In this document: piece by piece, positions 27,901 through 42,424 of the stretch
Layout: each line of letters starts with the position of its first letter
Position numbering within the stretch: position 1 is the stretch's first letter
Assembly: GCA_963809535.1 (NCBI GenBank)
Contig: CAWEJW010000001.1
Location: forward strand, 617,354 to 681,353
Reading direction: 5' to 3'
From: an uncultured Actinomycetes bacterium
GTDB taxonomy: Bacteria > Actinomycetota > Coriobacteriia > Anaerosomatales > CAVRZR01
Length of the DNA stretch: 64,000 nt
The notes under the pieces: model-generated
The model's input: the letters and a program-made list of their open reading frames with translations, nothing else
What the model was told of the DNA's origin: nothing
Database searches by the model: none
Position numbers and translations under genes: made by a program

Positions 27901-28608
27901 ATGTTGCGAAAGCGGGTACCCGGGGTCGCCGCGCGCACGGCCTTCTACAACGGCGGGTTGTCGCGTGAGGCGCGCGCCGCCATCGAGCACGCGTTCCGCA
28001 CCGGCGAGGTCTCGGCTGTCGTCGCCACAAGCGCGTTCGGGGAGGGAGTCAACATCCCCGACATTCGACACGTCGTGCACTTCCATCTGCCCTTTGGGGA
28101 AGTCGAGTTCAACCAGATGTCCGGTCGGGCAGGTCGCGACGGGGCCTCCGCGTCCGTGCACCTTCTCTTCGGGAAGAAGGATGCGCGCATCAATGAGGCC
28201 ATCCTCTCGGCCCTGGCACCTGGGCGAGAGGACCTGGCTGCGCTCTACCTCGTGCTACGCGACGAACAAGCGGCCTCGGGCGGGAGTTTCGAGGTCACGA
28301 ATGCCGAACTCGCCGAGCGGGCGCATCGCCGTCGCAAGCAGTTCGCGCTCGACGAGCGCGGCGTCTCTTCGGCCCTCGGGATCCTCCGCGAGTTGGGGCT
28401 GGTGGACGGGGAGGGGCACGGGTCCTATCGGCGACTCACCCTCCTGCCAGCTCCCGCCGAGAAGCTCGATCTGTCCGACTCAGTGCGCTACGCCGAGGGA
28501 CTCGATGAGATCGCCGAGTTCGGAGAGTTCAAACAGTGGGTGTTCTCGGCTGAACCGGCGTTGTTGCTCGAGCGGTTCAACCGTCCTATCCTGCCAACAC
28601 AGCTCTGA
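24961..28608 (+). CDS. recJ: RecJ exonuclease fused to a HIRAN domain and a RecQ-like DEAH helicase (1215 aa)
   Basis: N-terminus has the DHH family motifs (FGDFDLDG, DHH in VVTDHHEP, DHHA1 region). The middle (about 26788-27075) is HIRAN-like: LAGVTFEGRQD...L.RQPSNEHD.NAI.LF. The C-terminus has helicase motifs I (ATGRGKS), II (VVDEAHHV) and VI (QMSGRAGRDG). Confidence 0.85.
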   Translation: MGKARHALSRWQLAPADASAVHRLASAVGLSEITARVLVGRGMTDPETAERFLSPDLERDWLDPSLIPGMSEAADRVAQAAGSHERVVVFGDFDLDGIASAALTALGLRAMGADVRAIVPHRFREGYGLSPAALTRVFAAHPDLVVTVDCGISARAEVAVLAARGVACVVTDHHEPGRDLPPDIPVANPKLDPACPSHALAGAGVALKLVQAVGERLGFPDVWRDLVDLATLGTVADIVPLTGENRALVSAGLRAMSAAPRLGIAALASAAGISLESLDADNIAFALAPRLNAPGRMGDPDDALQLLLTDDSVLAEQLALSLDEQNRARQTSEQDLTEAALAQAERVYAGERALVLAGEGWHEGVKGIVASRVAAEYGVPTLLFTIEDGEARGSGRTAGSVDLFRALSDASSCLTRYGGHAAAVGCALPQGSLDQFRRDLLEVLDALPAEELAVELRYDADIALEDVGLELAAELERLAPYGSGNPKPILATRSVFMNGRQRVGRTGSHLRFMAFDGGASVPAIAFRCRDIEEVVAKDGPMDIAFEIAADEWRGRRRVQLLVRDMKDSSVAGGVEEPLTSIGILIEDLFERADEIIAREEYAGIGDAESFHTKLAGVTFEGRQDVLARLALGTPLRLERQPSNEHDTNAIALFDPFGDQVGFFNRRLSAALAPVIDSGTTYDVEVTDVTGGDEGRSLGVNVLVSQRGASQAAEAFAELRAQRRAKLAAMPASELDAELTRLFLGDRRLHAAQARALAHLAQGANTLLVMATGRGKSVVFHLHAARLALRDARASVFVYPLRALVSDQAFHLENTFAEAGLAVRTLTGETSPGARDETFADLTEGSLDVVLTTPEFLDHHAARFADAARVGFVVVDEAHHVGMARAGHRPAYARLDRALDALGNPLVLAASATAGDETARAIRSVLGIDKVVADPTVRDNLRIEDKRDHADKDTYICSLAASGEKMIVYVNSREQSVRLARMLRKRVPGVAARTAFYNGGLSREARAAIEHAFRTGEVSAVVATSAFGEGVNIPDIRHVVHFHLPFGEVEFNQMSGRAGRDGASASVHLLFGKKDARINEAILSALAPGREDLAALYLVLRDEQAASGGSFEVTNAELAERAHRRRKQFALDERGVSSALGILRELGLVDGEGHGSYRRLTLLPAPAEKLDLSDSVRYAEGLDEIAEFGEFKQWVFSAEPALLLERFNRPILPTQL

Positions 28609-28630: not shown

Positions 28631-30859
28631 ATGCCTGCGACGCTCGAACAGATAGAAGCGCACGTACAGGAATACAATCCTGGCGCGGACCTGAGCGGGC
28701 TGGCCGACGCGTACGAGTTTGCCGTCGAGGCTCACGAAGGTCAGATGCGCAAGTCTGGCGAGCCCTTCGTTCGGCACCCACTCGAGGTGTGTCTCATCTT
28801 AGCCGAGCTCCACCTCGACACGGCAACGCTCATGGCGGCCCTCCTGCACGACGTCGTCGAGGACTCCGGGGTGCCGCTTTCGGTCATTCGCGAGCGATTC
28901 GGTGACGAGGTCGCCGACCTCGTGGACGGTGTCACCAAACTCGGCAAGATCAAGTTTGCCTCGCTGGCCGAGGAGCAGAGCCAGAACATGCGCAAGATGC
29001 TCATCGCGATGGCCAAGGACATCCGCGTCATTCTGATCAAGCTCGCCGACCGTCTCCACAACATGCGCACGCTCGCGGCCTTGCCCGAGGAACGGCGGCG
29101 CGAGAAGGCCATCGAGACGATGGAGATCTACGCGCCGCTCGCGCACCGCCTGGGTATCTCAAGCATCAAGTGGGAGCTCGAGGACCTGGCGTTCTACTAC
29201 CTTGAGCCGCACAAATTTCACCAGGTTGCACGGATGGTCGCCGAGAGCCGAGAGGCGCGCGAGGCCTACCTCAATCAGGTCGTCGACCAGCTCCAGACCG
29301 AGTTGCGCGCGATCGGCGTCGAAGCCGACATCAAGGGGCGCCCGAAGCACCTCTACAGCATCTATCAGAAGATGGCGCGCAAAGGTAAGGACTTCAACGA
29401 GATCTACGACCTCATCGCCCTTCGCGTCATCGTCGGCTCGGTCAAGGACGTATACGGAGCACTCGGCACCGTTCACTCCATTTGGAAGCCGGTCCCGGGC
29501 CGCTTCAAGGACTATGTCGCGATGCCCAAGTTCAACATGTATCAGTCGCTGCACACGACCGTCATAGGTCCTGCCGGTCGCCCGCTGGAGATTCAGATCC
29601 GCACCGAAGAGATGCATCGCACCGCCGAGTACGGCATCGCTGCTCACTGGCGCTACAAGGAAGGGAGCCGGGGAGACGAGTCGTTCGACGAGAGACTCGC
29701 ATGGCTGCGTCAGATGCTCGAGTGGCAGACCGAGCTCAAGGACCCCCGCGAGTTCATGGAAGCCCTCAAGATCGACCTGTTCGAGGACGAGGTCTTCGTC
29801 TTCACTCCCAAGGGCGATGTCGTGTCCCTTCGAAGGGGATCGACTCCGATCGACTTCTCGTACGCAATCCACACCGAAGTCGGAAACCACACGGTCGGAG
29901 CCAAGGTGAACGGCGCGATCGTCCCGCTCGGCTACGAGCTGCAGATGGGCGATCGCGTAGAGATCATGACGAACAAGAGCTCGTCTCCGTCGAGGGACTG
30001 GCTCAACATCGTGCGCACGTCGAGTGCGCGGTCCAAGATCCGAAGCTACTTCTCGAAGGTGAACCGGGTCGACGATCTCCAGCATGGCCGAGAGGAGCTC
30101 GGCAAGGTCATGCGCAAGCACGGCATGGGGATCGGGTCGTCGACGGCCGCCAAGGCCCTTGAAGCCGTCGCCAAGGACATGAACTACGCGTCTGCTGACG
30201 ACATGCTCGCCGGCATCGGAGGAGGCAAGCTCTCGGCCAAGCAAGTCGGCACCAAGCTCCTCAAGCGCATGGCAAAAGAGGGCCAGAGTGGGGTCGCCGA
30301 GAAGCTCCCCCCAGAATCGCCGGGTACGCTTCCACTCACGCAGCCGATGCGGCCACCGCGCTCGAAGCGCCACAAGACCGGTGGGGGCGTGAAGGTCGTC
30401 GGTATCGACGACGTGCTCGTGCGACTGGCGCGCTGCTGCAATCCCGTTCCCGGCGACGCCATCGTCGGTTTTGTGACCCGCGGCAGGGGAGTGTCGGTTC
30501 ATCGCCGTGACTGCCCGAACGCGGCTGAGTTGCTCAAATCACCCGAGAGGATCATCGAGGTCGAGTGGGACCGCGCGGCGGCCGCAACGTATCAAGTTGA
30601 GATTTACGTTGAGGGTTTGGACCGGATGCGGCTCCTGCAGGACGTAACCGCGGCACTTGGGGAGTCAGGCGTGAACATCCTCGCGGCTTCGGCGAACACA
30701 CATCACGACGGCATCGTGAACATGCGGTTCCTCTTCGAGCTGGGTGATATGGACCAGCTCCAGTCGGTGCTGCGGACCGTGCACGCGATCGACGGGGTCT
30801 TCGAGGCGCGCCGCATGCTGCCGGGCGAAAGCAGCGGCCAGCGCAAGGCGGGCGGCTAG
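28631..30859 (+). CDS. relA: bifunctional (p)ppGpp synthetase/hydrolase RelA/SpoT
   Basis: HD domain (HPLEV...LHDVVED), synthetase domain (RPKH.YSIY.KM, DL.A.R.I), TGS and ACT regions. Internal ATG with GAAGGA SD. Confidence 0.95.
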   Translation: MPATLEQIEAHVQEYNPGADLSGLADAYEFAVEAHEGQMRKSGEPFVRHPLEVCLILAELHLDTATLMAALLHDVVEDSGVPLSVIRERFGDEVADLVDGVTKLGKIKFASLAEEQSQNMRKMLIAMAKDIRVILIKLADRLHNMRTLAALPEERRREKAIETMEIYAPLAHRLGISSIKWELEDLAFYYLEPHKFHQVARMVAESREAREAYLNQVVDQLQTELRAIGVEADIKGRPKHLYSIYQKMARKGKDFNEIYDLIALRVIVGSVKDVYGALGTVHSIWKPVPGRFKDYVAMPKFNMYQSLHTTVIGPAGRPLEIQIRTEEMHRTAEYGIAAHWRYKEGSRGDESFDERLAWLRQMLEWQTELKDPREFMEALKIDLFEDEVFVFTPKGDVVSLRRGSTPIDFSYAIHTEVGNHTVGAKVNGAIVPLGYELQMGDRVEIMTNKSSSPSRDWLNIVRTSSARSKIRSYFSKVNRVDDLQHGREELGKVMRKHGMGIGSSTAAKALEAVAKDMNYASADDMLAGIGGGKLSAKQVGTKLLKRMAKEGQSGVAEKLPPESPGTLPLTQPMRPPRSKRHKTGGGVKVVGIDDVLVRLARCCNPVPGDAIVGFVTRGRGVSVHRRDCPNAAELLKSPERIIEVEWDRAAAATYQVEIYVEGLDRMRLLQDVTAALGESGVNILAASANTHHDGIVNMRFLFELGDMDQLQSVLRTVHAIDGVFEARRMLPGESSGQRKAGG

Positions 30860-30860
30860 G

Positions 30861-31508
30861 TTGTTCCTGGAGAGGCTCGTGCTCGGCGAGCTGCAGACGA
30901 ACTGCTGGGTGGTCGCCGACGACTCGGACGGCCCCGCGATCGTGATCGACCCCGCAGGTCACCCGTCGGATGCCGAGCGCATCGCACTCGCGGCGGCTCC
31001 CCGCGAGGTCGTTGTGATCGTCTTGACTCACGCGCACTTCGATCATCTGGGCGCTGCGTCCGCACTTCTTGAGGCGACTGGTGCGACGCTCGCAGTGCAC
31101 AGGATCGATGCGTCACGGATCACCTCACCCGCTGCCGGGGGCACCGGGGGCGCGCTGTTCGGTTTCGCGGACGTGGCCCCCCACGCCGACCGACTCCTCG
31201 ACGATGGCTCGCTCGTCGCGGCCGGGGCTTTGGCCCTCGAGGTGTGGTCTACTCCCGGTCATACCGAAGGATCGATCTCGCTTCTCGCTTCCCGCGGCGA
31301 GCACCCGATGCATCTGTTCTCGGGAGACACGCTGTTTGCAGACAGCGTCGGTCGCACCGACTTCCCGGGCGGCGACGCGCGAGCGCTGCAACGATCGATA
31401 GCGCGGATCGCCGCCTTGCCGGATGAAACGGTCGTCCATCCCGGACACGGACCTGACACGACGGTGGGGCGCGAACGGAGGCTCAACGCGTTCTTTCCGA
31501 GGGCGTGA
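30861..31508 (+). CDS. MBL-fold metallo-hydrolase (glyoxalase II-like)
   Basis: THAHFDH motif, TPGHT.GS and GD.LF......R.DFPGG. TTG start directly after the relA stop. Confidence 0.8.
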   Translation: MFLERLVLGELQTNCWVVADDSDGPAIVIDPAGHPSDAERIALAAAPREVVVIVLTHAHFDHLGAASALLEATGATLAVHRIDASRITSPAAGGTGGALFGFADVAPHADRLLDDGSLVAAGALALEVWSTPGHTEGSISLLASRGEHPMHLFSGDTLFADSVGRTDFPGGDARALQRSIARIAALPDETVVHPGHGPDTTVGRERRLNAFFPRA

Positions 31509-31582
31509 TGTGCGCTCGACCGAGCTCATCGCGTGACCCTCGCTGCGTCAGGAGGCGGGCGGGGGATGATTTCCGTCATCAA

Positions 31583-31599
31583 CCCGTTATGTTAACGGG
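31583..31599. promoter_or_regulatory. 17-bp perfect palindrome CCCGTTA-TGT-TAACGGG (candidate operator)
   Basis: 7-bp inverted arms with a 3-bp spacer, 11 nt upstream of the TACAAT hexamer, overlapping the expected -35 position. Confidence 0.35.
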
Positions 31600-31609
31600 C
31601 CTTAGGGGG

Positions 31610-31615
31610 TACAAT
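31610..31615 (+). promoter_or_regulatory. -10-like hexamer TACAAT for the cytochrome operon
   Basis: GGGTACAAT lies 211 nt upstream of ATG 31826, in the only long non-coding gap upstream of the island. Confidence 0.35.
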
Positions 31616-31825
31616 CCGACGTAGCGGCGAACCGCGGGCAACGGGGTTCGCCTCCCGAAGGTTGAGCGGGGGAACCAGATCGCTCGGGGGAGCAGTAAGG
31701 TTCCCGAACCCTGCCAAGCCACGGTTGGGTCTCTCGGTCTTGGGGCCGGCATCCTGTCACGGATGGGAGGTGCTGATAGCGGGGAAGTGACAGCAGATGA
31801 TCTTGCGATCAAGGAGAAGAAGACA
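31616..31825 (+). promoter_or_regulatory. ~200-nt structured 5' leader of the hexahaem cytochrome gene (class unknown)
   Basis: Stems are GGCGAACC(31626-33)/GGTTCGCC(31645-52), GAGCG/CGCTC and GGGAACC/GGTTCCC (mutually nested or pseudoknotted), and CTGTCAC(31754-60)/GTGACAG(31786-92) just before AAGGAG. Confidence 0.3.
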
Positions 31826-33307
31826 ATGAAGAAGGTTCTTATCGTTGTGGCGCTTGCAGTGGCGTTGACCTTTGCGATAACCGTCGTTGCATTCGCCGAT
31901 CACTCGCCGTCGTTCTACATCCAGTGGAACGAAGAGGGCGGCTTTGAAGGTGCGAACGCGTTCGTCACGAGCCCGCACGCCGGGTACGTCGAGGGCACAC
32001 AGAAGTGCGGCGTGTGCCACGCCGTCCACCGTGCAGCGGTTCAAGGTCTGGGTTGGGAGCCAGGCGGTCAGCTCTATCCTGCCGAGATCGGCGGAGAGAA
32101 CAGGGCCGCGCGGCTGCAGTACAGCGCACCGTTCTTGGGCGAAACACAGATGCTGCTGCAGACTCCCGTCTCGGGAAATTGTGACTACTGCCACATCACG
32201 ACCTCGATCGGCGCGATCCAGATCTATGCAGGTAAGGTCAAGTATCGCCTCGAGGCCAACGACGCTAATGGTGGCTCGAACTGGGAAGGTGGGTTCGCCC
32301 ACAACAACGCATGCACGGCGTGCCACGCGGTGCATGGTGCGTTCGCCAACCCGTTCGTCGCTGCTCCGACCGCAGCCGACAACGTCGTGTTCCAGGGCCC
32401 CTTGGCCGCCAAGGTCGTGAAGGGTTACGCCAAGAACAAGAGCACGACATGGCAGCGCGAGATCTACCTTGCCGGCACGAACTACGAGTCGAGCCTGTTC
32501 CCCGGCGTCCAGCCGGTCGTATCCTCAGCGGTCGACCCGCTGAACACGCCGCTCTTCGCGTCGAAGGCTGACGCGCTGGCGGGCACGAACGCTCGGGTCG
32601 GTGCTGATGTTGCCGACGCGCAGGTCAGCGCGCACTGCACGTTCTGCCACGAGAACTACGGCTACGCTGCAGAGGCCATGAACAACAGGGAGTTCTTCGG
32701 CAAGACGGTCGCCGAGGTTGCAGCGATCACCGGCACGAACAACCAACTGGAGTCCTACAAGCAGGGCGCGGGCCTCTTCCAGGGTCAGTGGAACATCAGG
32801 CTGGTTGCTGACGGCCCGCAGATCAGCGCACGCAACGCCTACAGCACGACGCCTACCGGCGGTACTGCTCCGTGGCTTGGCCCGGGCTTTGATGGGCACG
32901 TCGCCGTCAAGAACCACCCGATGAAGAGGGCCGTCACCACTGGCTGGTCCTCGGCTGGTGGCGCCGCTATCGCCCAGGTCGCATTCAAGGGCTCGGATAC
33001 GTGCCGTTCCTGTCACGACGCAGGTGTCGAGGGCGCTGGTGGAGTCATCATCCAGTCGTTCCCGCACTTCACGCCTGGCTACTTCAAGTTCCTGATTTCC
33101 GCGGACAATCTGGGCGCGGAGATGATGAACATCAACGCGATCCTCAAGGCGAACCCCAGGGCAATGACCCAGGGGGTTCTCGACACGGTCTGGGCAACGC
33201 TGGACGACCCGGCTGTCCAGGAAGCTGCTGAGTGCACGTCTGACGGTGCCTGCCTGAAGTGCCACATCAACGCTGACAAGAGCGCTGGTATTGGCCTTAC
33301 GTTCTAG
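31826..33307 (+). CDS. secreted hexahaem c-type cytochrome (493 aa)
   Basis: AAGGAG sits 9 nt upstream. Sec signal MKKVLIVVALAVALTFAITVVAFA/DH. Six CxxCH motifs: CGVCH, CDYCH, CTACH, CTFCH, CRSCH, CLKCH. Confidence 0.85.
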   Translation: MKKVLIVVALAVALTFAITVVAFADHSPSFYIQWNEEGGFEGANAFVTSPHAGYVEGTQKCGVCHAVHRAAVQGLGWEPGGQLYPAEIGGENRAARLQYSAPFLGETQMLLQTPVSGNCDYCHITTSIGAIQIYAGKVKYRLEANDANGGSNWEGGFAHNNACTACHAVHGAFANPFVAAPTAADNVVFQGPLAAKVVKGYAKNKSTTWQREIYLAGTNYESSLFPGVQPVVSSAVDPLNTPLFASKADALAGTNARVGADVADAQVSAHCTFCHENYGYAAEAMNNREFFGKTVAEVAAITGTNNQLESYKQGAGLFQGQWNIRLVADGPQISARNAYSTTPTGGTAPWLGPGFDGHVAVKNHPMKRAVTTGWSSAGGAAIAQVAFKGSDTCRSCHDAGVEGAGGVIIQSFPHFTPGYFKFLISADNLGAEMMNINAILKANPRAMTQGVLDTVWATLDDPAVQEAAECTSDGACLKCHINADKSAGIGLTF

Positions 33308-33346
33308 GCTTGACACTACAGACTGCTACTGACGCAGTCGAAGACA

Positions 33347-33373
33347 GGGTGGCCCTCCTTCGGGGGGGCCACC
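33347..33373 (+). terminator. hairpin after the hexahaem gene (partial terminator or stabiliser)
   Basis: GGGTGGCCC-loop-GGGCCACC followed by TTGCGTCTGTGTG. Confidence 0.5.
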
Positions 33374-33439
33374 TTGCGTCTGTGTGCGGCGCATGGGTCC
33401 TCCCATGTCGCGCTGGGTACCGTGATAGGATTCTTGAGG

Positions 33440-34444
33440 ATGACTTCCGGAATGGTGCCGAGGTCGATGGAACCGCAGGACGCAAAGCCAATGTCACGCA
33501 GACGGCGGGGAATCATCCTGGGCGTCGCCGGGGCTGTTCTGGTGTTGCTCGTTCTAGGGGCGGCCGCCTCGTCCCTTCCGTCCGGCTGCTCTTCTGTCTG
33601 TCACCGCGCCCAAGCCAAGACCCTCGCTTCGAGCGATCACAGCAATGTGTCCTGCTACCGTTGCCACCTGGCGCGCGGCGCCTGGAGCTACCCCGGCTTC
33701 ATTGGATCGATCCTGTTTCGCATGAATACTCGTGCGCTCACAGGCTCGGGCTACCACACTGCGGCCGTTCAAACTTCTCGGAGCGCGTGCATCCAGTGTC
33801 ATGAGGGGACATTCGAGCGGACGAGCCAATCCGGCGGGATCCGCATCAAGCACTCGAGCTGCGCACCCGGCCCCACGTGCGACCCATGCCATGCGGCCGT
33901 CGCTCACGGCTCGGCAGTGCGCTGGGACGGCACGTACTCGATGGATGACTGCGTTGCGTGCCACAGGGCGCAGACGGCTCCCACGGCGTGCGACACGTGC
34001 CATACCCAGAAGGCGCGGGCCGCTCGCACGCGCGGGGCGTGGCAGGTCACCCACGGCCCGAACTGGGAGAAGACGCACGGCCTGGGAGATCTGGATACCT
34101 GCAGCACCTGTCACGGTGAGGGGTTCTGCGAGAGGTGCCACAAGGCCCCTGTGCCCCATCCTGAGGACTGGGGCGGCACCCACGGGCAGTACGCGATCGA
34201 GGACCGAGCTTCGTGTGAGACCTGCCACTCCTCCAGCGCCTGGTGCGCCTCCTGCCATGGGACGCAGATGCCTCACCCGAGCGGATTCCTGCAAGAACAC
34301 AGCTCGATCGCCAGCGGCCTGGTCGATCCGGAGTGCACACACTGTCACGACGAGAGCGACTGCGCCACCTGCCACACCTACCACGTGCATCCGGGCGGTG
34401 CCTCTGGTGTCCCCGTGCTCCCAACCGCTACCGATGCCCGATGA
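33440..34444 (+). CDS. membrane-anchored multihaem c-type cytochrome (11 CxxCH + 1 CX3CH), NapC/NirT-like topology
   Basis: An N-terminal RRRR-TM helix (GIILGVAGAVLVLLVLGAAA) is followed at once by CSSVCH. Paired motifs such as CSTCHGEGFCERCH, CETCHSSSAWCASCH and CTHCHDESDCATCH follow. Start ambiguous, 33440-33491. Confidence 0.85.
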   Translation: MTSGMVPRSMEPQDAKPMSRRRRGIILGVAGAVLVLLVLGAAASSLPSGCSSVCHRAQAKTLASSDHSNVSCYRCHLARGAWSYPGFIGSILFRMNTRALTGSGYHTAAVQTSRSACIQCHEGTFERTSQSGGIRIKHSSCAPGPTCDPCHAAVAHGSAVRWDGTYSMDDCVACHRAQTAPTACDTCHTQKARAARTRGAWQVTHGPNWEKTHGLGDLDTCSTCHGEGFCERCHKAPVPHPEDWGGTHGQYAIEDRASCETCHSSSAWCASCHGTQMPHPSGFLQEHSSIASGLVDPECTHCHDESDCATCHTYHVHPGGASGVPVLPTATDAR

Positions 34445-35730
34445 CCGCCCTAGGGCCTGCATCCTCACTCCGGTTATTCGGTCTCACAGTGGGAGGCCTG
34501 GACTTCAATGGTGCCTACAATTCCTTCCTGAAGGCCCTGCGCGAGCCATCGGCGGATCCGACGTTGACGCTGCTCTTTGTTGCGGCTGCGGCGCTACTCG
34601 TCCTGCTCATCGCGTTGGCAGTCGCCATGGTGGCGACGCCGTCTCGCAAGCGGGTCGTGAAGGTCCGCCGATACCGCGGGTCGCCCGAGGAGATCGCGGC
34701 TGCCCGTGCCGCGGTTGCTGCGCGAGCCGCTTCGGCGGCCGATGAAGGCGACCGCGAGGAGAGCCCGGCGAAGCCCGAAAAGGGAGGACCTCGACCGTTC
34801 TGGTCCAGGCCTACGTTCTTCATCGTCGTTGGCGTCGTGATCCTGGCACTGGCCGCCTATGGTGCCACGTCCACCAACGCCTACTGCGCCCGCACGTGTC
34901 ACGGCGGCACGCCCGCGGTGCGTTCGGCGACCAAGGTCGGACATGCCCCGTGCACCTCGTGTCATGAGGACAACGCGATCACCGGGGTCTTCGACAACAC
35001 CGTGGCTCGCGCCGCGATGCTGGCGGGCCAGGCCGCAGGCCGCAGTCCAGATACCCCGAATGTCGCCGCCGAATCGGCGGCTTGCCTGCACTGTCACGAA
35101 GCGGTGAAGACGGGCATCGTCGAGTCGTCGTCCGGGGTCAAGATGTCCCACGCCGAACCTCTGAAAGCCGGGCAGCCCTGCACCAGTTGCCACCCGGACA
35201 CAGGTCACGTGAGTGCGGGATACACCATGGGCATGCCTCCGTGCCTTCCGTGCCACGATGGCAAGACGGCGCCGATCACGTGCAGTCTGTGCCATCGAGG
35301 GGACCCCATGAGTCCAGTCGTGGCCGCTGCCTCAAACGAGGCGTCGGGCGGAGTGAGCTACCCGGCGGTCCGGGCGGCAAACCATGAATGCGGGGGCTGC
35401 CACGATCAAGAGCAGACGTGCGATCCCTGTCACGGCATCCGGATGCCCCATAGCCAGACGTTCATCGAGGGCGGCCATGCGAGATACGCCGCGTGGAACA
35501 ATAAGCAGACCTACTGCTCGCGCTGCCACCAACTTTCCACCTGTGCGGGGAAGTGCCACACGTCGTTCAACGGGCCGACGGGGCACAGCGCTGATTGGGA
35601 GGTCATGCACCAGGACTCTCCATGGGATTCGGGGTGCCCCTGCCACAGCGCGAGAAGCCCGCGTGCCGGCCCGCTGTGCTACCGGTGTCACGATCCGAAG
35701 ACGAAAGAGCTGCTCCCCCTGAGACCCTGA
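34441..35730 (+). CDS. membrane-anchored multihaem c-type cytochrome, paralog of the preceding gene (9 CxxCH + 2 CX3CH + 1 degenerate CPCH)
   Basis: ATGA overlap with the upstream stop. Two TM helices, the second followed at once by CARTCH. Collinear with the upstream paralog (MPPCLPCHDGKTAPITCSLCH versus MDDCVACHRAQTAPTACDTCH). Confidence 0.85.
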   Translation: MTALGPASSLRLFGLTVGGLDFNGAYNSFLKALREPSADPTLTLLFVAAAALLVLLIALAVAMVATPSRKRVVKVRRYRGSPEEIAAARAAVAARAASAADEGDREESPAKPEKGGPRPFWSRPTFFIVVGVVILALAAYGATSTNAYCARTCHGGTPAVRSATKVGHAPCTSCHEDNAITGVFDNTVARAAMLAGQAAGRSPDTPNVAAESAACLHCHEAVKTGIVESSSGVKMSHAEPLKAGQPCTSCHPDTGHVSAGYTMGMPPCLPCHDGKTAPITCSLCHRGDPMSPVVAAASNEASGGVSYPAVRAANHECGGCHDQEQTCDPCHGIRMPHSQTFIEGGHARYAAWNNKQTYCSRCHQLSTCAGKCHTSFNGPTGHSADWEVMHQDSPWDSGCPCHSARSPRAGPLCYRCHDPKTKELLPLRP

Positions 35731-35764
35731 GGCATCGACAGGCGCTTTGTGCCGCGACCACAGC

Positions 35765-35794
35765 GGCCCGCCGAATCGCTCTCCAGGGCGGGCC
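35765..35794 (+). terminator. possible terminator hairpin after the cytochrome operon
   Basis: GGCCCGCC-14 nt-GGCGGGCC followed by TTGCTGCATCTTC. The loop is long and the T tract weak. Confidence 0.3.
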
Positions 35795-36010
35795 TTGCTG
35801 CATCTTCGGGACGGATCACTTCAGCGGTGCCGCGAAGGTGCCGATACTCTGGCACGGACGGACATGTGGCTAACCCCGGTCCTCTTCTCCTGCCGGGGCT
35901 GCCGACCGCAGCGACCCTCGCCTGTTACGGGGGTCGTTCTGCGTCCTAGGGGCGCGGGGCCCAGGGAGGTCGAGCGTGCTGCCGACCAGATGCGCCCATC
36001 TGCGGACGCG

Positions 36011-37099
36011 TCATTTGCTTTCGGGGATACGCAGGATCTGGATCCGGTTGTTCGTCGTGTCCGCTACGGCAAACCAGTCGCGTTCCTTGTCATAAGCGAT
36101 GCCCGTTGGGTTGTTGAACAGGCCGTCTGTCGCGCCGTAGTCGCCGTACATGGCCGACGTCTGGTCGTGCTCCTTTGCCACTTTGCCGGTTTTGGCATCC
36201 AGCACGATGATCTTGAACTTGAACGCGTCGACAAGCACGATCCTGCCCTTGGCATCCATCGTCATCCCTGTGGGCATCTCGAAGGGATTCTTCGGGTCGG
36301 GTGTGCGCCGAATGTCGACTGTCGAGGAATCCTCGCGATTGGGAGCCGTGCCGGATATCCAGAGCAGGCGGCCGTCTTCTGAGTACGCCTTCACGCGTCG
36401 GTTCTGAGTGTCGGAGACATAGAGGGTGCCATCCGGACCGAGAAGGATCCCGTGCACCACGTCGAACTGCTCCTTGTCGGTCCCGCGGGTGCCGCCAAGC
36501 TGCATCAAGATCTGGTCGTCAGGCGTGAACACCGCGATGCCCTTGGTACTGCCGACGGCGATCTTGCCGTCACGAACGTCGACGACATTCGGCAGCTCCA
36601 CCCGCCATTTGGTCACGAACGTCCCGTCTGGACGGAACTCAAGAACCTGCCCGCCGAAGTCGGCGGTCCATAGATTGCCGTCCTCGTCCACCGAGATCCC
36701 CTCGAGTGAAACGATGCCCTTGGGTTCGATGACCCGCTTGACCGTGCCATTGGGATTGAACCCGACGATGTGGGAGTGTCCAGAGATCGCCCAGATCGTG
36801 CCATCGGGGCCAATGGCGACGTCGGTGGGTGCTTCGAGTTGCTGGTCAGCTTGGGTGCCCCACCCGTAGAGCGACCTGACCCACGTGACTCCGGATGGCA
36901 GCTCGGCCTTCGTCGGAGCTGCTGAGGGACGGGTCAATCTGAGCACGCCGTACGCCACGACGGCGAGAAGCAGCACGAGTACCCCAAGGATAACGGCGAG
37001 CACTCGGCGCTGTCGTCGATTGTCGACGTACTCGACGACGGTTTCGGCGTATTCCCCAGGCTCTTGGATTCCGGGCGTTGTCTCGGGCGTCTCGCTCAT
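36011..37099 (-). CDS. membrane-anchored NHL-repeat beta-propeller protein
   Basis: GGAGGA SD and an N-terminal TM helix (VLAVILGVLVLLLAVVAYGVL). Repeated blades follow: P.GIA..DG.I.V.D..N.RV, e.g. GPDGTLYVSDTQNRRVKAY and FNNPTGIAYDKERDWFAVADTTNNRIQIL. Confidence 0.8.
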   Translation of the reverse strand: MSETPETTPGIQEPGEYAETVVEYVDNRRQRRVLAVILGVLVLLLAVVAYGVLRLTRPSAAPTKAELPSGVTWVRSLYGWGTQADQQLEAPTDVAIGPDGTIWAISGHSHIVGFNPNGTVKRVIEPKGIVSLEGISVDEDGNLWTADFGGQVLEFRPDGTFVTKWRVELPNVVDVRDGKIAVGSTKGIAVFTPDDQILMQLGGTRGTDKEQFDVVHGILLGPDGTLYVSDTQNRRVKAYSEDGRLLWISGTAPNREDSSTVDIRRTPDPKNPFEMPTGMTMDAKGRIVLVDAFKFKIIVLDAKTGKVAKEHDQTSAMYGDYGATDGLFNNPTGIAYDKERDWFAVADTTNNRIQILRIPESK

Positions 37100-37130
37100 G
37101 AGTCAGTCCTCCAGGCGCGGCTGGCGCAGT

Positions 37131-37907
37131 CTACTTGTCCGTGGCTTCGGCCTTCTTGAGGCCTTCTGTGGCGGAGGCGTCGTCAGGCAGGAACTGCAGC
37201 GCGTACTTGAAATCCTTGGCGGCTGAAGTCTTGTCGCCGGCACCCAACTCGGCCCATCCCCGCAATACGATGATATCGGCCGCCTGCTCGTCCAGCGCCA
37301 GTGCCGCATTGAAGGATTGGATCGCTTCCTTGTACTTCTTCAGGTTCTGCTGTGCAGTGCCTCGCAGCACGAGCAGCCTGATGGTCGTACTGTTGTTCTG
37401 CGCCTCGTCGGGGACACGAATCCCCTTCTGGAGGTTCGCGTTGAACTCCTCTTTCAGCAACGCCTCGTCCTTCAAGAGGTATGCCTGGGAGCGCGCCAAA
37501 GCCTCCGCGTTCCTTCCTTCGAGGATGAGGAGGTGGAGGTCGACGTTGTTGACCTCACGGATGGTCTTGTCGGTGACTTGCGTGCGAGCGCGCACCAGGG
37601 CTTCCTGCGCGCCTTCCTTGTCGCCAACGGCGTACAACGCCTCGGCGTAGTCAGCCCACGCCTGCCCATTGCCAGGGTTCGCTTTGACAGCCGACTCGTT
37701 GGCGGCTCGCACCGACTCAGCCCAGGTACGCGGCGTGGAGCGGAAGAACACCCCCGTCAACAGAGCGTACGCAAGCACGGCCACGATCAGGCAGCCGACG
37801 CCGATGGACGCCCAGAGCAGTATGCGGGATACCCGATCTGGCGAAGACTCGAGAGGTTCTTCCACGTACTCAGGCGTCTCAGAGAATGGCGAGCCACTCA
37901 TTTGCAC
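37131..37907 (-). CDS. membrane-anchored TPR-repeat protein
   Basis: One TM helix (ILLWASIGVGCLIVAVLAYALL), then TPR-like helical repeats (AWADYAEALYAVGDKEGAQEAL; YKEAIQSFNAALALDEQ; AAKDFKYALQFLPDD). Upstream of and co-oriented with the NHL gene. Start is GTG 37907 or ATG 37901. Confidence 0.75.
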   Translation of the reverse strand: MQMSGSPFSETPEYVEEPLESSPDRVSRILLWASIGVGCLIVAVLAYALLTGVFFRSTPRTWAESVRAANESAVKANPGNGQAWADYAEALYAVGDKEGAQEALVRARTQVTDKTIREVNNVDLHLLILEGRNAEALARSQAYLLKDEALLKEEFNANLQKGIRVPDEAQNNSTTIRLLVLRGTAQQNLKKYKEAIQSFNAALALDEQAADIIVLRGWAELGAGDKTSAAKDFKYALQFLPDDASATEGLKKAEATDK

Positions 37908-38153
37908 GACCTCACTTCCCGACGCCTGCCTGCGAGCAGCCGGGCCCCCTGGGTCAGCGGCGTTCCTTCAAGTTCGACGCCTGCCCACTACGTCCTGCCG
38001 TTGTGCCCGGGCCGTCCAGTGCTTTGCGACTCCCGTGCCAGCAACAACGATACTCCCAAAGGCCGTTGGCGGGCATGATATCCATAGAAACTCCTTGGAC
38101 CGGTCTCGCCTGCGTCTTCGGGGGTCTCACATGTTGCTGACCAGCAGAATTGG

Positions 38154-38183
38154 TTGTGGGAAAGGGCGTGGACGCTCTATAAT
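38154..38183 (+). promoter_or_regulatory. candidate promoter of the large cytochrome gene (-35 TTGTGG, 18 nt, -10 TATAAT)
   Basis: TTGTGG at 38154-59 and TATAAT at 38178-83, in the 357-bp divergent region between the TPR and cytochrome genes. Confidence 0.4.
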
Positions 38184-38264
38184 GCGTGCTGAGCATCTTG
38201 GGGGGCCACGGGCGCTCTGGGGTTCCTGCACGAGTGTGACAACTGCAATTGCGAGGGTCGCCTG

Positions 38265-40982
38265 GTGAGTCGCATGGGACCGGCGCTATTTGGACGCCAC
38301 TGGGTCGTCGCGGTCTTTCTTCTAGCTGCGGCGGTCTTGGCGTTGGCGCCTTTCGCTGTCGCGGGCGTGTCAGATGTGCCAGCTGACCTCCACGCGGCTG
38401 CGGGCGCGAAGTCGCCCATCGTGGTGAGTCTGTCTTGGGCCGCCCCATCTGGGTCCTCGGTTTCCGGATACCGCGTGTACGTGGCGGAACACGAAGACGG
38501 CCCGTATGATCTGGCGACATCAACGCCCGGCTACTCGTTTGACTACGTTGAAGGGGAATCCGGGTGGCCCTACTACTTCCTAGTCACTTCGGTTGACGCC
38601 GACGGCGTGGAGTCCGCCGCAGCCCAGGCTGGTCCAGTCGCGTCCAAGTGGATCGAGTCGCCACATGGCGCCTTCTCGGAAACCAGCCACAACTGCGAGC
38701 ATTGTCATTCGGTTCACGACGCGGACGGCAATCTTCTGCTCGATATTCTGAGGACGGATGAGGCGTCCGACACCCCAGACCAGTCCAGGGCCTGTTTCCG
38801 ATGTCATGGAGGGCAGTCAGCCGATTCGGCGAACGTCGAGGACGGCTCTCGCGACTCCTTCGCGCTTGCCAGCGGGCATTCCGTCGATGCTTCAGCAAAT
38901 GCCGGCTTGATCAGCGCGTGCTCGAGCTGCCATTGGGTTCACGGCGACTCCGAGGTTCGCCCGATGATCCCAGCATTGACGGTCAATGGACTCTCGGTAG
39001 CATCCAGCGGGCCCGAGCTGTGTTACGCGTGCCACGACGCAAAGAACACTTGGTACGACGGCAACTACCCCTCGCCATCGTCCCCTCCGCGAGACGCCTC
39101 AGGGTACCCGGTGAGCGGAACCTGGATGGGCCCGGCGACCTACAAGGGTGGGTCCAACGCGCACCGGCTCATTCCTGAGACGACGCAGACTGCGGGGTTT
39201 GTGGCGCCCGTCCGTCGTGCGCAGGGAGACTGCCTGTACTGCCACGCGGCCCACAGGGGCTCGAACAAGTACGACTCCCTCTTGACGACCTTCACCCCGT
39301 CGACCACGTCATCGCTGGCCTCGGATCAGAGGCACGGCACCTACGCGGCGCTATGTCTCGACTGTCACGGTGGATCCGTGCCGAGCGGCTTCGAGACGGC
39401 GCCGACGGATATCGCGCAGTTCGTCACCACGTCGACAGCAGACGCCACGTCGGGCCATCGAATCAAGACAGCCGGCGGGACCCTCCCCGTAGGGGCGCCG
39501 CTGCCCTGCTATGAGTGTCACAACCCCCACGGATCGACTCGCGGGAATGCGAGCATGCTCTCCGATGTCGTGGGCGGGAGTCTTGAGACGAGTAGCGACG
39601 CCGGAGTGCGGCATTTCTGCTTCAGCTGCCATACGACCTCCGACACGGTTCGCGGGTGGGACAGCGATGAGTCGATCTTCTCTCCGGTCGGAGAAACCGA
39701 CTCCGTTGTCGGGATTGCGCGGACCGGAGGCGTGCTTCGGCTGCCGCCTCTGGCGGCTCACTCCCAGGCGAGTGCCACTTCGTGCTATGCGTGTCATGGC
39801 TCCGACTATCGCACCGGCGGCAGCAATGTCCACAACCCGGGTCTTGGCGGCTACGACCCCGAGGCGCACACCTCGACGGTAACCACCGCGACGATCACGA
39901 TCCTCGGGACGCCTTACACGGACCGCGCATGCGCAGACTGCCATGTTCTCGAGCTGGGCCCGCTCCACATGCCTCCAGCCGACTGCGCAGACTGCCACGA
40001 CACGCTCGTGCCGATCCCCGGCGGCTGGGACAAGGGCTGCGTCCAGGCAGGTTGTCATCCGGCAGGCTCACCGCTCGAGATCCATGTCGACATCGACGCC
40101 TCACACATGCGCTCGGCGGAGCCTACGGCCGCCGACACCTGCTTCGTCTCCGAGTGCCACACGGGCGGTGGTAGCCTCGCGGACATCCACGCGAACAAGC
40201 AGAGCTGCGACACGTGCCACAGCTTGGACAGAGCGCCGACCGGCAACTGCGAAGCGAGCGGCTGCCATGATTTGGGCAAACCACACGAAGATCTGACGAT
40301 CGCCCACACGTCGAGCGGTGGCACCGACTTCGTCTCGGTCGGGATCCAGGACAGGCGCCACGGCTACTACGACGGCGTGACCGCAAACTGCTCGGATTGC
40401 CACATCACAAGCCTGATCCCGCTGCACTCGGGCGATTGTCAGACGTGCCACACGAGCTCCGTGAGCGAAGCCGTCAAGGACGCTATCGCGAACGACGACA
40501 CGAACTGCACGTCGTGCCACCCGGGCCACCACAGCGGAGATATCGACGCTCACTACAGCGTGGTCAGCGACGGCTGCCACAAGTGCCACAACGCGGATCC
40601 CTATGTGGACTCGTCCAACGTCACCTGCACGGGATGCCACACGCCACCCAACAGGGAGACGTTCGTCAACCCTGAGCGCATCACTGGGACCATCCGCCTT
40701 GTCTTTGGCGACTGCGATGTGAGTGGCAGCGCTCCGCCTGAGCATTCATATGCCGTGTGGACGGTGCGGAGTGGCGGGGCAGACGGGCCGGTTGTGGCTT
40801 CTGGCGGGGGCTTCGACGGCAGCGGGTGGGATGGCATCGATGATGTCATGGTCTTCGCACAGCCACAGCCATATCACGTCTACATCGAGTGGTACGACAG
40901 GGAGTCGGACAACTCGGGGGAGAGCTTCTTCTCTCAGGTAGACGTGACCACGTCAGGCCAGCTCGCAACGTTGCACTACTAG
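38265..40982 (+). CDS. large exported multihaem c-type cytochrome with N-terminal FN3-like domain (17 CxxCH + 3 CX4CH; 905 aa)
   Basis: Signal/anchor HWVVAVFLLAAAVLALAPFAVAG. FN3-like segment (SLSWAAPSGSSVSGYRVYV...YYFLVTSVDADGVES). Then 17 CxxCH motifs plus CVQAGCH, CFVSECH and CEASGCH, and a haem-free beta-rich C-terminal ~100 aa. Confidence 0.85.
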   Translation: MSRMGPALFGRHWVVAVFLLAAAVLALAPFAVAGVSDVPADLHAAAGAKSPIVVSLSWAAPSGSSVSGYRVYVAEHEDGPYDLATSTPGYSFDYVEGESGWPYYFLVTSVDADGVESAAAQAGPVASKWIESPHGAFSETSHNCEHCHSVHDADGNLLLDILRTDEASDTPDQSRACFRCHGGQSADSANVEDGSRDSFALASGHSVDASANAGLISACSSCHWVHGDSEVRPMIPALTVNGLSVASSGPELCYACHDAKNTWYDGNYPSPSSPPRDASGYPVSGTWMGPATYKGGSNAHRLIPETTQTAGFVAPVRRAQGDCLYCHAAHRGSNKYDSLLTTFTPSTTSSLASDQRHGTYAALCLDCHGGSVPSGFETAPTDIAQFVTTSTADATSGHRIKTAGGTLPVGAPLPCYECHNPHGSTRGNASMLSDVVGGSLETSSDAGVRHFCFSCHTTSDTVRGWDSDESIFSPVGETDSVVGIARTGGVLRLPPLAAHSQASATSCYACHGSDYRTGGSNVHNPGLGGYDPEAHTSTVTTATITILGTPYTDRACADCHVLELGPLHMPPADCADCHDTLVPIPGGWDKGCVQAGCHPAGSPLEIHVDIDASHMRSAEPTAADTCFVSECHTGGGSLADIHANKQSCDTCHSLDRAPTGNCEASGCHDLGKPHEDLTIAHTSSGGTDFVSVGIQDRRHGYYDGVTANCSDCHITSLIPLHSGDCQTCHTSSVSEAVKDAIANDDTNCTSCHPGHHSGDIDAHYSVVSDGCHKCHNADPYVDSSNVTCTGCHTPPNRETFVNPERITGTIRLVFGDCDVSGSAPPEHSYAVWTVRSGGADGPVVASGGGFDGSGWDGIDDVMVFAQPQPYHVYIEWYDRESDNSGESFFSQVDVTTSGQLATLHY

Positions 40983-41143
40983 CTGGCGCGCCGGGCGGAC
41001 AGTCAACTCCGGTACACCTTGCTCGCTTCGCGGGTTGCCTTCCGGATGCGCTGCAGTGCATCCGAGGTATCAGCTCTCAACACTGCCTTTGCTTCGGTGC
41101 GCTAGAGTATGAAACCGCATCGAGCCCTGGATCGGGAGTGTGG

Positions 41144-42424
41144 ATGGACGCTCGCGCACCCAAAGGCACCACCGACTTGCTCCCCGATGTCGCTCGCGCT
41201 TGGGAGTACATGGTGCGCGTCGCGCAGGACCTCTTCGCGCGCTACGGATACGAGCCGATCTACTCGCCGCTCTTTGAGCACACCGACGTGTTCACTCGCG
41301 GCATCGGTGAAGCGACCGATATCGTGACCAAGGAAATGTACACGTTCGACGATCGAGCCGGTCGTAGCCTCACACTGCGTCCCGAGGGCACCGCGAGCAT
41401 CGTTCGAGCGGCGCTCGAGCACACGCTCGTGCCGCAGGGCTCATTCGCGAAGCTCTACTACGCCGGGCCCATGTTCCGCTACGAACGCCCTCAGAAGGGG
41501 CGGATGCGTCAGTTCTGGCAGATCGGCGTCGAGGTTCTCGGGGCGGCCGAATCAAGCGCCGATGCGGAGATCATCGCGGTCCTCGTTCGCTACTTCGAGG
41601 CCTTGTCGATCCCGCGTGCGCGGATGCGGCTTCTCCTCAACTCCATGGGAGATGAGGTCTGCAGGCCCTCCTACCGCGAGACGGTGGCTACCTACATCCG
41701 CGCCCACTCCGCTGACCTGTGTGCAGAGTGCAACCGCCGTGCAGGAACGAATCCCTTGCGCGCGTTCGACTGCAAGGTCCCTGGCTGCCAAGAAGTCATG
41801 TCCGACGCACCGCTCCTGCGAGATTGCCTGTGTTCTGAATGTGCGGAGCACTATGTGGAGGTCAAGCGCTACCTGGATGACCTCGGCATCGCCTACGAGG
41901 AGGATCCGAGGCTCGTGCGGGGCTTGGACTACTACACGCGCACCGTGTTCGAGATCCAGGCGGAGGGTCTGGGGTCGCAGAACGCGATCGGCGGGGGAGG
42001 ACGCTACGACCGGCTCATGGAGGAGTACGGAGGCCCGGCGACGCCGGGACTGGGATGGGCTCTGGGCTTCGAGCGCACACTGCTGGCTCTGCAGGCCGCC
42101 GGCGTCGCGATCCCTGCGCCACCACGTGCAGACGTCTACGTTGCGTGCGCCGACCCCTTGTTGAGAGAGACGGTCTTCCGCTTGACACAGGACTTGCGCG
42201 ACGCTGGCATCTCAGCCGAGATGGATCACCAGGCTCGCAGCTTGAAGGGGCAGCTCAAACAGGCTGACAGACTGTCGGCGCCTCACGTGCTCATCGTCGG
42301 TCCCGAGGAACTCGCAGACGGGGAGGTCACGCTGCGCGACATGCGCACCAAGGGCCAGACGCGCGTGCGAGTCGCGGACGTGGTCGTTCATATGCGCTCG
42401 TTGCTCGACGGAGAACCTGACTGA
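41144..42424 (+). CDS. hisS: histidine--tRNA ligase
   Basis: Motifs PKGT.D.LP, Y.GPMFRYERPQKGR.RQF.Q.G.E, GGGRYD and an anticodon-binding C-terminus. TAGAGT at 41103-08 and GGGAG SD upstream. Confidence 0.95.
   Translation: MDARAPKGTTDLLPDVARAWEYMVRVAQDLFARYGYEPIYSPLFEHTDVFTRGIGEATDIVTKEMYTFDDRAGRSLTLRPEGTASIVRAALEHTLVPQGSFAKLYYAGPMFRYERPQKGRMRQFWQIGVEVLGAAESSADAEIIAVLVRYFEALSIPRARMRLLLNSMGDEVCRPSYRETVATYIRAHSADLCAECNRRAGTNPLRAFDCKVPGCQEVMSDAPLLRDCLCSECAEHYVEVKRYLDDLGIAYEEDPRLVRGLDYYTRTVFEIQAEGLGSQNAIGGGGRYDRLMEEYGGPATPGLGWALGFERTLLALQAAGVAIPAPPRADVYVACADPLLRETVFRLTQDLRDAGISAEMDHQARSLKGQLKQADRLSAPHVLIVGPEELADGEVTLRDMRTKGQTRVRVADVVVHMRSLLDGEPD

Follow-up and report, generated by a model that had tools for sequence, protein, structure and literature searches.

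The 64-kb stretch of DNA analyzed here (hereafter, the window; positions 617,354 to 681,353 of contig CAWEJW010000001.1) comes from an uncultured bacterium of the Anaerosomatales and includes a group of six genes, four of which encode multihaem c-type cytochromes (A, B, C and F) and the other two an NHL beta-propeller (D) and a TPR protein (E). The region is probably an extracytoplasmic multihaem electron-exchange module of a monoderm, high-GC bacterium of the Coriobacteriia type. Comparison of gene neighborhoods indicates that the real unit is a five-gene module, E-D-A-B-C, that is distributed across the class and that, in the lineage of the window, has been relocated and rearranged, with F added. 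The genes and one RNA element of the locus, in window coordinates, are the following.

A, 31826-33307, plus strand: secreted hexahaem c-type cytochrome of 493 amino acids (aa), with the predicted signal peptide ending between VAFA and DH
Hairpin, 33347-33374, plus strand: GC-rich stem of 12 bp with a UUCG loop; it begins roughly 40 nt 3' of the A stop codon
B, 33491-34444, plus strand: membrane-anchored 12-haem cytochrome of 317 aa, consisting of an NrfH/NapC-like tetrahaem module and an 8-haem extension
C, 34441-35730, plus strand: paralog of B, 429 aa, with 11 haem motifs and two transmembrane (TM) helices
D, 36011-37099, minus strand: membrane-anchored extracytoplasmic NHL beta-propeller of 362 aa
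E, 37131-37907, minus strand: membrane-anchored extracytoplasmic TPR protein of 258 aa, encoded just upstream of D
F, 38265-40982, plus strand: secreted protein of 905 aa with an FN3-like domain, a 9-haem core, 11 further haem motifs and a C-terminal beta-rich domain

Conservation of the gene neighborhood across Coriobacteriia

Synteny was analyzed by tblastn of the six window proteins against 78 loci that contain a relative of A and were obtained from a scan of one genome per species. Nearly all of these loci belong to Coriobacteriia, Anaerosomatales or unclassified Actinomycetota metagenome-assembled genomes (MAGs), and Coriobacteriaceae sp. EMTCatB1 is also represented. The recurrent arrangement is E-D-A-B-C on one strand. 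In 54 of the 78 loci, A is immediately preceded by D in the same orientation, and an E homolog lies upstream of D in 43; counted anywhere in the locus, D is present in 63, E in 51, B in 50 and C in 53. In 23 loci, the array is complete and collinear, and 11 more encode E-D-A with B and C on the opposite strand; these numbers come from a set in which A is close to the end of the locus, mostly a contig end, in 31 cases. Thus, the suggestion in an earlier note on this DNA, made from the sequence alone, that the NHL and TPR genes are true partners of the cytochromes is borne out by their synteny with A in most of the loci.

By contrast, F-like genes accompany the module in only 4 of the 78 loci, with an NHL gene directly before the F-like gene, which identifies F as a lineage-specific addition. 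Close metagenomic relatives (81-92% identity) share the exact layout of the window, that is, A-B-C, then D and E inverted, then F. The earlier note correctly described all six open reading frames (ORFs), including the antisense E-D pair, but its interpretation of the six genes as one island has to be abandoned, given that F is so rarely linked, that the GC content of the cluster region is the same as that of its flanks, with no deviation that would betray a mobile element, and that no repeats flanking the cluster were found.

In most other Coriobacteriia, the module is inserted between leuC and leuD (for example, in loci L010, L022, L024 and L078; L numbers denote individual loci of the set). 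The published gene order of EMTCatB1 runs serA (1d0119), leuA (1d0120), leuC (1d0121), 1d0122, 'TPR' (1d0123), a hypothetical gene (1d0124), three multihaem cytochromes (1d0125-1d0127), leuD (1d0128) and leuB (1d0129) (PMC7943316), which is the order of L024; accordingly, 1d0123-1d0127, from a member of the same class, match the module in the order TPR, hypothetical (NHL) and three cytochromes. Compared with the EMTCatB1 and Anaerosomatales clusters, the window lineage has an inverted E-D pair, has gained F, and carries the module not between leuC and leuD but between the gene for a metallo-beta-lactamase (MBL)-fold hydrolase and hisS (flank coordinates 30744-31508 and 40889-42424), flanked by relA plus the MBL-fold hydrolase gene and, at the opposite end, by hisS-aspS.

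Two further features of the related loci were observed. The leuC/leuD placement splits the two subunit genes of isopropylmalate isomerase (1d0121 and 1d0128 in EMTCatB1). In 32 of the 78 loci, the module adjoins a gene for a polytopic Wzy_C membrane protein of about 640 aa (L006:16976-18904, L024:5855-7792 and 30 more), which is of the O-antigen ligase or O-oligosaccharyltransferase type and is absent from the window region; this protein might be involved in glycosylation of a secreted cytochrome or in wall-polymer attachment.

Haem motifs and predicted topology

A script-based count gave 6 CxxCH motifs in A, 11 CxxCH and one CX3CH in B, 9 CxxCH and two CX3CH in C, and 17 CxxCH and three CX4CH in F, the same numbers as in the earlier note; altogether, the four ORFs contain 43 canonical and 49 total haem motifs. 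A six-frame translation of the 64 kb contains 44 CxxCH motifs, and given that 43 of these fall inside A, B, C and F, the clustering is far beyond chance. The sole CxxCH outside the four cytochrome genes is at window position 3623 (plus strand, frame 2).

The positions of these motifs are kept by homologs of A, B and the core of F. In A, all six CxxCH motifs are invariant among 94 homologs, as are five further histidines (H51, H68, H159, H170 and H414), and H364 is found in at least 90% of the sequences; these six conserved candidate distal ligands would fit six bis-His haems. All 12 motifs of B, together with ten further histidines, are kept in 31 homologs. All 15 homologs of F retain the nine N-terminal motifs that form the core, together with a CxxCH at residue 648 and a CX4CH at residue 662, and at least 90% of them also have the CxxCH of residue 574 and the CX4CH of residue 592; the remaining C-terminal motifs are below that level. 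The Pfam matches of the cytochromes above the cut-offs are to generic multihaem families only (Cytochrome_C7, Paired_CXXCH_1 and MtrC/MtrF_II-IV). Judging from these alignments, the conserved haem sites, nearly all accompanied by a conserved second histidine, are typical of electron carriers rather than of catalytic haems.

Hydropathy analysis predicts a single N-terminal hydrophobic segment with an A-x-A site in both A and F, one TM segment each in B, D and E, and two in C. These predictions agree with the earlier proposal that each of the four cytochromes has either a Sec signal or a membrane anchor, such that the haem domains are predicted to lie outside the membrane. Neither an LPXTG motif nor a lipobox was found in any of the six proteins.

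The hexahaem cytochrome A as the bulk component

Homologs of A are numerous, with 187 detected in a word-indexed search and 514 representative clusters in an exhaustive search, and the window protein shares only 40-52% identity with the closest GTDB representatives. In Pfam, A shows only generic multihaem matches (MtrC/MtrF domain II/IV, 32.1 bits). An AlphaFold2 (AF2) model built on a 94-sequence alignment reached a mean predicted local distance difference test score (pLDDT) of 82.2; a first model, from a 28-sequence alignment, was too poor (pLDDT 52.7) and was set aside. A Foldseek search with the better model gave no match in the PDB, and hidden Markov model (HMM) profiles of A run against PDB sequences gave only insignificant matches to reaction-centre cytochromes. 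The A family is without a solved relative, by sequence or by Foldseek. In three loci (L002, L005 and L015), A paralogs occur in tandem. An A-like hexahaem region also forms the C-terminal part of several proteins of 1000-1574 aa (P0417, P0424, P0427, P0436, P0456 and P0465), which suggests that the fold can be used as a domain of large monomeric cytochromes as well.

The spacer between A and B folds with a z-score of -4.68, and the 5' leader of A shows no significant structure (z = -1.2). The shape of the hairpin after A is identical in close relatives, and a hairpin of unrelated sequence is found at the same place in 19 of 20 loci, in many of them with a U-rich tail. The mean energy of the best 44-nt hairpin after A is -30.6 kcal/mol, as against -18.7 for shuffled sequences, -21.1 for the D-A spacer and -20.3 downstream of C. 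No Rfam family was detected anywhere in the window, and in a consensus scan of the 31-41.5 kb region, promoter and terminator counts were not above those in shuffled sequence. By its position and shape, the hairpin looks like a leaky intrinsic terminator or an mRNA stabilizer that sets A apart from the B-C pair.

The conserved hairpin predicts an excess of A over B and C, and published RNA-seq confirms this prediction in EMTCatB1. On the poised cathode, the A ortholog 1d0125 had a mean of 10917 transcripts per million (TPM), with replicates far apart (3108 and 18726), compared to 270 for 1d0126 (B), 152 for 1d0127 (C), 100 for 1d0123 (E) and 86 for 1d0124 (D) (Kobayashi et al. 2021, Table S5, PMC7943316). 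By these TPM values, the A ortholog is 40-130 times above B, C, D and E, and the 40-fold drop from A to B agrees with the hairpin position. In the same data, 1d0125 ranks 7th in abundance among all transcripts and first among the cytochromes (PMC7943316). Given the conserved hairpin and the transcript excess in EMTCatB1, A is the bulk component of the module, with its own promoter and a leaky terminator or stabilizer after it; the suggestion in the earlier note that the hexahaem protein is abundant and promoter-proximal was thus well placed.

The membrane-anchored cytochromes B and C

The start codon of C overlaps the stop codon of B (ATGA), and the two proteins align in BLASTP across the whole haem domain (26% identity, E = 2e-14), so that they can be considered translationally coupled paralogs, as had been noted previously. 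C has a weak match to the Pfam family Cytochrom_NNT and differs from B in having two TM helices, between which lies a basic loop of about 60 aa. The best solved relative of the B family is NrfH (2j7a_C), which is matched by the B-family profile with an E-value of 4.6e-11. This alignment runs end to end, from profile position 14 to 156 and from residue 14 to 154 of the 159 in NrfH, and covers the TM helix and four haem motifs. Cytochrom_NNT (PF03264) is detected in 14 of 31 B-family members (best E = 2.8e-10), and window B alone matches TIGR03153 with an E-value of 9e-4.

The first haem motif of B is CSSVCH, a CX3CH motif (residues 33-38, window 33587-33604). The same spacing is found in the metagenomic homolog P0251, which is 92% identical, and the 30 other aligned homologs have CXXCH. 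On the basis of this comparison, CSSVCH reflects a lineage-specific insertion of one residue at the haem closest to the membrane.

The NHL propeller D and the TPR protein E

D is a propeller of the six-blade type without cysteines and matches the Pfam NHL model with an E-value of 1.5e-18 (66.3 bits, cut-off 20). E matches TPR_2 (E = 1.3e-9, 37.9 bits, cut-off 27), and all 29 E homologs match TPR models. In many loci, the E stop codon abuts or overlaps, by no more than 4 nt, the called ORF start of D. A role of E as an apocytochrome chaperone of the CcmI/NrfG type was considered but found no specific support, as E-family profiles match every TPR protein; the CcmH/CycH TPR model matches only 7 of the 29 family members. 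As far as profile comparisons can tell, E is a generic TPR protein without a specific match to cytochrome chaperones.

The functional link of D and E to the cytochromes follows from their tight synteny with A and from the pairing of NHL genes with F-like genes, and D is a partner of the secreted cytochrome or cytochromes, probably as a scaffold, an anchor or an assembly factor. A second NHL gene was found directly before a giant F-like cytochrome gene (encoding 1027-1787 aa) in four loci, which also carry a second TPR-NHL-cytochrome cassette. The loci with an NHL gene and a giant F-like cytochrome gene are the following.

L033:11421-18100
L036:13223-19700
L048:13228-17300
L075:13097-19700

This repeated pairing suggests that an NHL protein together with a secreted cytochrome constitutes a recurrent building block.

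The 20-haem protein F

F belongs to a family of modular cytochromes of 500-1560 aa from MAGs of Coriobacteriia and Actinomycetes; its database version (P0131, 902 aa) is three residues shorter than the window ORF. The 9-haem core spans approximately residues 130-525. The FN3 domain that the earlier note assigned to F is weak in F itself, where residues 34-121 align to an FN3 domain in 1x5z by phmmer with an E-value of 0.04 and where Pfam fn3 is not reported at E<=0.1; it is better supported through the homologs, several of which contain PF00041, with the W/Y/G pattern of the region being conserved. In the module, F is a lineage-specific accessory and possibly the outermost cytochrome. The earlier note had F cross the wall and A act as the terminal component, but nothing shows such an order; by analogy to Thermincola, and considering the abundance of A, the roles of the two proteins could be reversed.

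Proposed mechanism and alternative interpretations

Under the proposed scenario, B and C, perhaps as a heterodimer, would form the link between the electron pool of the membrane and a chain of some 23 haems on its outer side, and would exchange electrons, in either direction, with the abundant secreted A, which would fill or cross the wall. D and E would hold, fold or assemble A and, in the window lineage, may serve F as well, which would extend the chain at the surface. Electrons could flow outward, to reduce Fe(III) or minerals as Parvivirga does, or inward, as in the cathode uptake that has been proposed for EMTCatB1. No beta-barrel gene is present in the region or in the related loci, in agreement with the earlier statement that a porin or outer-membrane component is lacking. 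The resulting architecture is that of a conduit of the Thermincola type, with multihaem cytochromes in the membrane and in the wall or at the surface of a monoderm and without a porin, albeit with no homology of the components. The cultured Anaerosomatales relatives are Gram-positive by electron microscopy, and Parvivirga respires ferrihydrite (PMC9686372).

Several observations weigh against an electron-exchange module of this kind. The haem-1 signature of NrfH, CxxCHxM, is retained as CHxM in a subset of B homologs, and window B reads CSSVCHRA at this place. A scan of the whole window revealed no CcsA-type WWD motif, and Pfam analysis of the genes at approximately 20.7-46.6 kb revealed no cytochrome c maturation or menaquinone genes near the cluster. 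In favor of the module, by contrast, WWD motifs of the CcsA type (WGRYWGWDPxETWSL), the mark of System II cytochrome c maturation genes, are located 0.5-6 kb from the cassette in six related loci (L040:4187, L041:7287, L048:19312, L050:1072, L057:842 and L062:7129). Biogenesis genes have also been reported in Anaerosomatales genomes, beside other cytochrome clusters (PMC9686372). A further point against it is that quinones were undetected in both cultured Anaerosomatales strains (PMC9686372), which makes the electron donor for B and C uncertain; of the earlier proposal that the anchored paralogs oxidize quinol, the homology of the B N-terminus to the NrfH/NapC module stands, and quinol as the donor is in doubt. 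Finally, Anaerosoma tenue possesses, like the Fe(III) reducer, a three-cytochrome cluster that fits A-B-C, yet does not reduce ferrihydrite (PMC9686372), which implies that the module is not sufficient for, or not specific to, iron reduction.

With respect to the direction of flow, the module might function mainly inward, with a cathode, Fe(II), a mineral or a syntrophic partner as the electron source and the membrane pool, a hydrogenase or a formate dehydrogenase as the recipient. We consider a predominantly inward role possible but rather doubtful. In principle, modules of the NrfH/CymA type can work in both directions. The strongest expression evidence was obtained on a cathode, a setting for electron uptake. 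EMTCatB1 was the dominant organism of an electromethanogenic biocathode, and the authors of that study proposed direct electron uptake via multihaem cytochromes; the mean level of the A ortholog was 10917 TPM on the poised cathode (replicates 3108 and 18726) versus 4287 at open circuit and 3942 with the methanogenesis inhibitor bromoethanesulfonate (BrES) (PMC7943316). However, the expression of A remains very high at open circuit, growth by Fe(III) reduction is known from a cultured relative (PMC9686372), and the direction is not given by sequence alone, as chains of bis-His haems are bidirectional.

It is also conceivable, if unlikely, that A polymerizes into a filament that crosses or exceeds the peptidoglycan, with D and E forming a membrane platform and B and C charging the filament. 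The expression of A, with its own promoter, a terminator-like hairpin and a transcript among the top 10, resembles that of a major structural subunit, and the presence of tandem A paralogs in some loci points in the same direction. Minimal OmcE clusters consist of two multihaem cytochromes, beta-propeller lipoproteins and the filament subunit, a set that mirrors B, C, D and A (bioRxiv 10.1101/2025.10.22.684050). Pili-like appendages were observed on both Anaerosomatales isolates, in the iron reducer only with ferrihydrite (PMC9686372), and the hexahaem CwcA of Thermincola has been modelled as a wall-crossing OmcS-like polymer (PMC7911101). Nevertheless, neither HMM nor Foldseek searches detected similarity of A to OmcS, OmcE, OmcZ or archaeal filaments, the A-like domains at the C-terminus of 1000-1574-aa proteins suggest a non-polymeric use, and the number of conserved histidines in A fits intra-subunit and inter-subunit ligation alike.

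A periplasmic-type reductase for a soluble substrate (nitrite, sulfite, hydroxylamine or polysulfide/thiosulfate), with B and C as the quinol dehydrogenase and A as the catalytic or coupling subunit, would be compatible with the homology of the B family to NrfH, the partner of the nitrite reductase NrfA, with the respiration of sulfur and thiosulfate, but not ferrihydrite, by Anaerosoma tenue, which has a similar cluster (PMC9686372), and with the annotation of nitrite-reduction genes in EMTCatB1, but is highly improbable because A lacks a CxxCK motif and any match to Cytochrom_C552, octahaem or HAO families in Pfam and NCBIfam, has a conserved candidate distal histidine for each of its six haems, so that no open catalytic site is apparent, and is not linked to a catalytic subunit of a characterized reductase, with the 78 loci showing no conservation of a molybdopterin, Fe-S or sirohaem subunit beside the module. 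A structural or conduit role is also the better fit to the presence of NHL and TPR partners and to the extremely high level of A.

Relationship to known systems

In architecture, a close parallel is the ImdcA-PdcA-CwcA-OcwA system of Thermincola potens and T. ferriacetica, which likewise are monoderms with a membrane multihaem cytochrome, a hexahaem cytochrome, a larger surface cytochrome and no porin. In Thermincola, the membrane cytochrome is proposed to tap the quinone pool, and the hexahaem protein to lie in or across the wall (Carlson 2012; PMC6703420; PMC7911101). The nine-haem core of F is paralleled by the nine haems of OcwA, but no sequence or Foldseek similarity to OcwA was found for A, B or F. 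The two systems differ further in the membrane part, which here is a pair of NrfH-like paralogs with 12 and 11 haems, in the NHL and TPR proteins and the hairpin after the hexahaem gene, which are outside the description of the Thermincola system, and in the host, a high-GC actinomycetote rather than a firmicute.

The OmcE (OmcS) clusters of Geobacter and Desulfuromonas resemble the module in combining two multihaem cytochromes, one or more beta-propellers and a small secreted multihaem subunit in excess, as well as in the presence of Wzy_C or glycosylation-type genes and TPR genes near many of the module loci. Unlike these clusters, the module lacks an outer-membrane beta-barrel, which is in keeping with a monoderm host; its propeller has a TM helix as the anchor in place of a lipid; and A has six haems and no detectable homology to the filament subunits. 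With NrfH, NapC, NirT and CymA, the B family shares its N-terminal TM helix and initial four haem motifs, to which B adds eight further haems and C seven. The distinction from NrfH extends to haem 1, which in the window is a CX3CH without the methionine of CxxCHxM, and to the partner, as no NrfA, NapAB or other reductase was found. In Desulfovibrio ferrophilus, NHL propellers are encoded with extracellular multihaem cytochromes, are co-expressed with them and have been proposed to stabilize complexes (PMC5815863); the host in that case is a diderm.

The earlier note considered the gene combination undescribed in a high-GC lineage. This does not hold, as multihaem cytochromes of high-GC Coriobacteriia were published in 2017-2021 for EMTCatB1 and in 2022 for Anaerosomatales. 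The reports on high-GC Gram-positive bacteria include an Fe(III)-respiring isolate with a three-cytochrome cluster (PMC9686372) and 1d0123-1d0127 of EMTCatB1 (PMC7943316). In Anaerosoma tenue (MCK8115470-72) and Parvivirga hydrogeniphila (MCL4078710-12), the cluster was described as two putative quinol-oxidizing multihaem cytochromes and an 'MtrA homolog' (PMC9686372), and by this published description, it probably corresponds to B, C and A. These papers list the cytochromes by best BLAST match or by expression only (PMC9686372, PMC7943316), and Gram-positive bacteria do not feature among the cases in a 2026 review on cytochrome nanowires (PMC12954529). In the literature searched, the definition of the five-gene module with its NHL and TPR components and the assignment of B and C to the NrfH type appear to be undescribed, and the same seems to apply to the conserved hairpin, its agreement with the 40-130-fold excess of A, and the lack of a solved relative for A.

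Other features of the window

Upstream of the module, a single ORF of 1215 aa (24961-28608, plus strand) encodes RecJ (DHH, DHHA1 and RecJ_OB domains) fused to a HIRAN domain and a superfamily 2 (SF2) helicase (DEAD/Helicase_C), an unusual RecJ architecture.

Implications

The OPB41/Anaerosomatales-type Coriobacteriia have a wide distribution in communities of the subsurface, of sediments and of bioelectrochemical systems. To our knowledge, Thermincola and Carboxydothermus are the only bacteria for which the passage of electrons through a thick Gram-positive wall is understood in outline, and the proteins of the module described here are unrelated, at a detectable level, to those model systems. 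If A indeed forms filaments, the module would constitute the first 'nanowire' system of cytochromes in a monoderm bacterium, with a new fold as its basis, and could explain the ferrihydrite-induced appendages of Parvivirga. The module provides concrete targets for the cultures of Parvivirga hydrogeniphila and Anaerosoma tenue and for the EMTCatB1 enrichment, namely a single protein for purification and imaging, the two helper proteins and a hairpin predicted to be regulatory, and may serve as a genomic marker for electroactive Actinomycetota.

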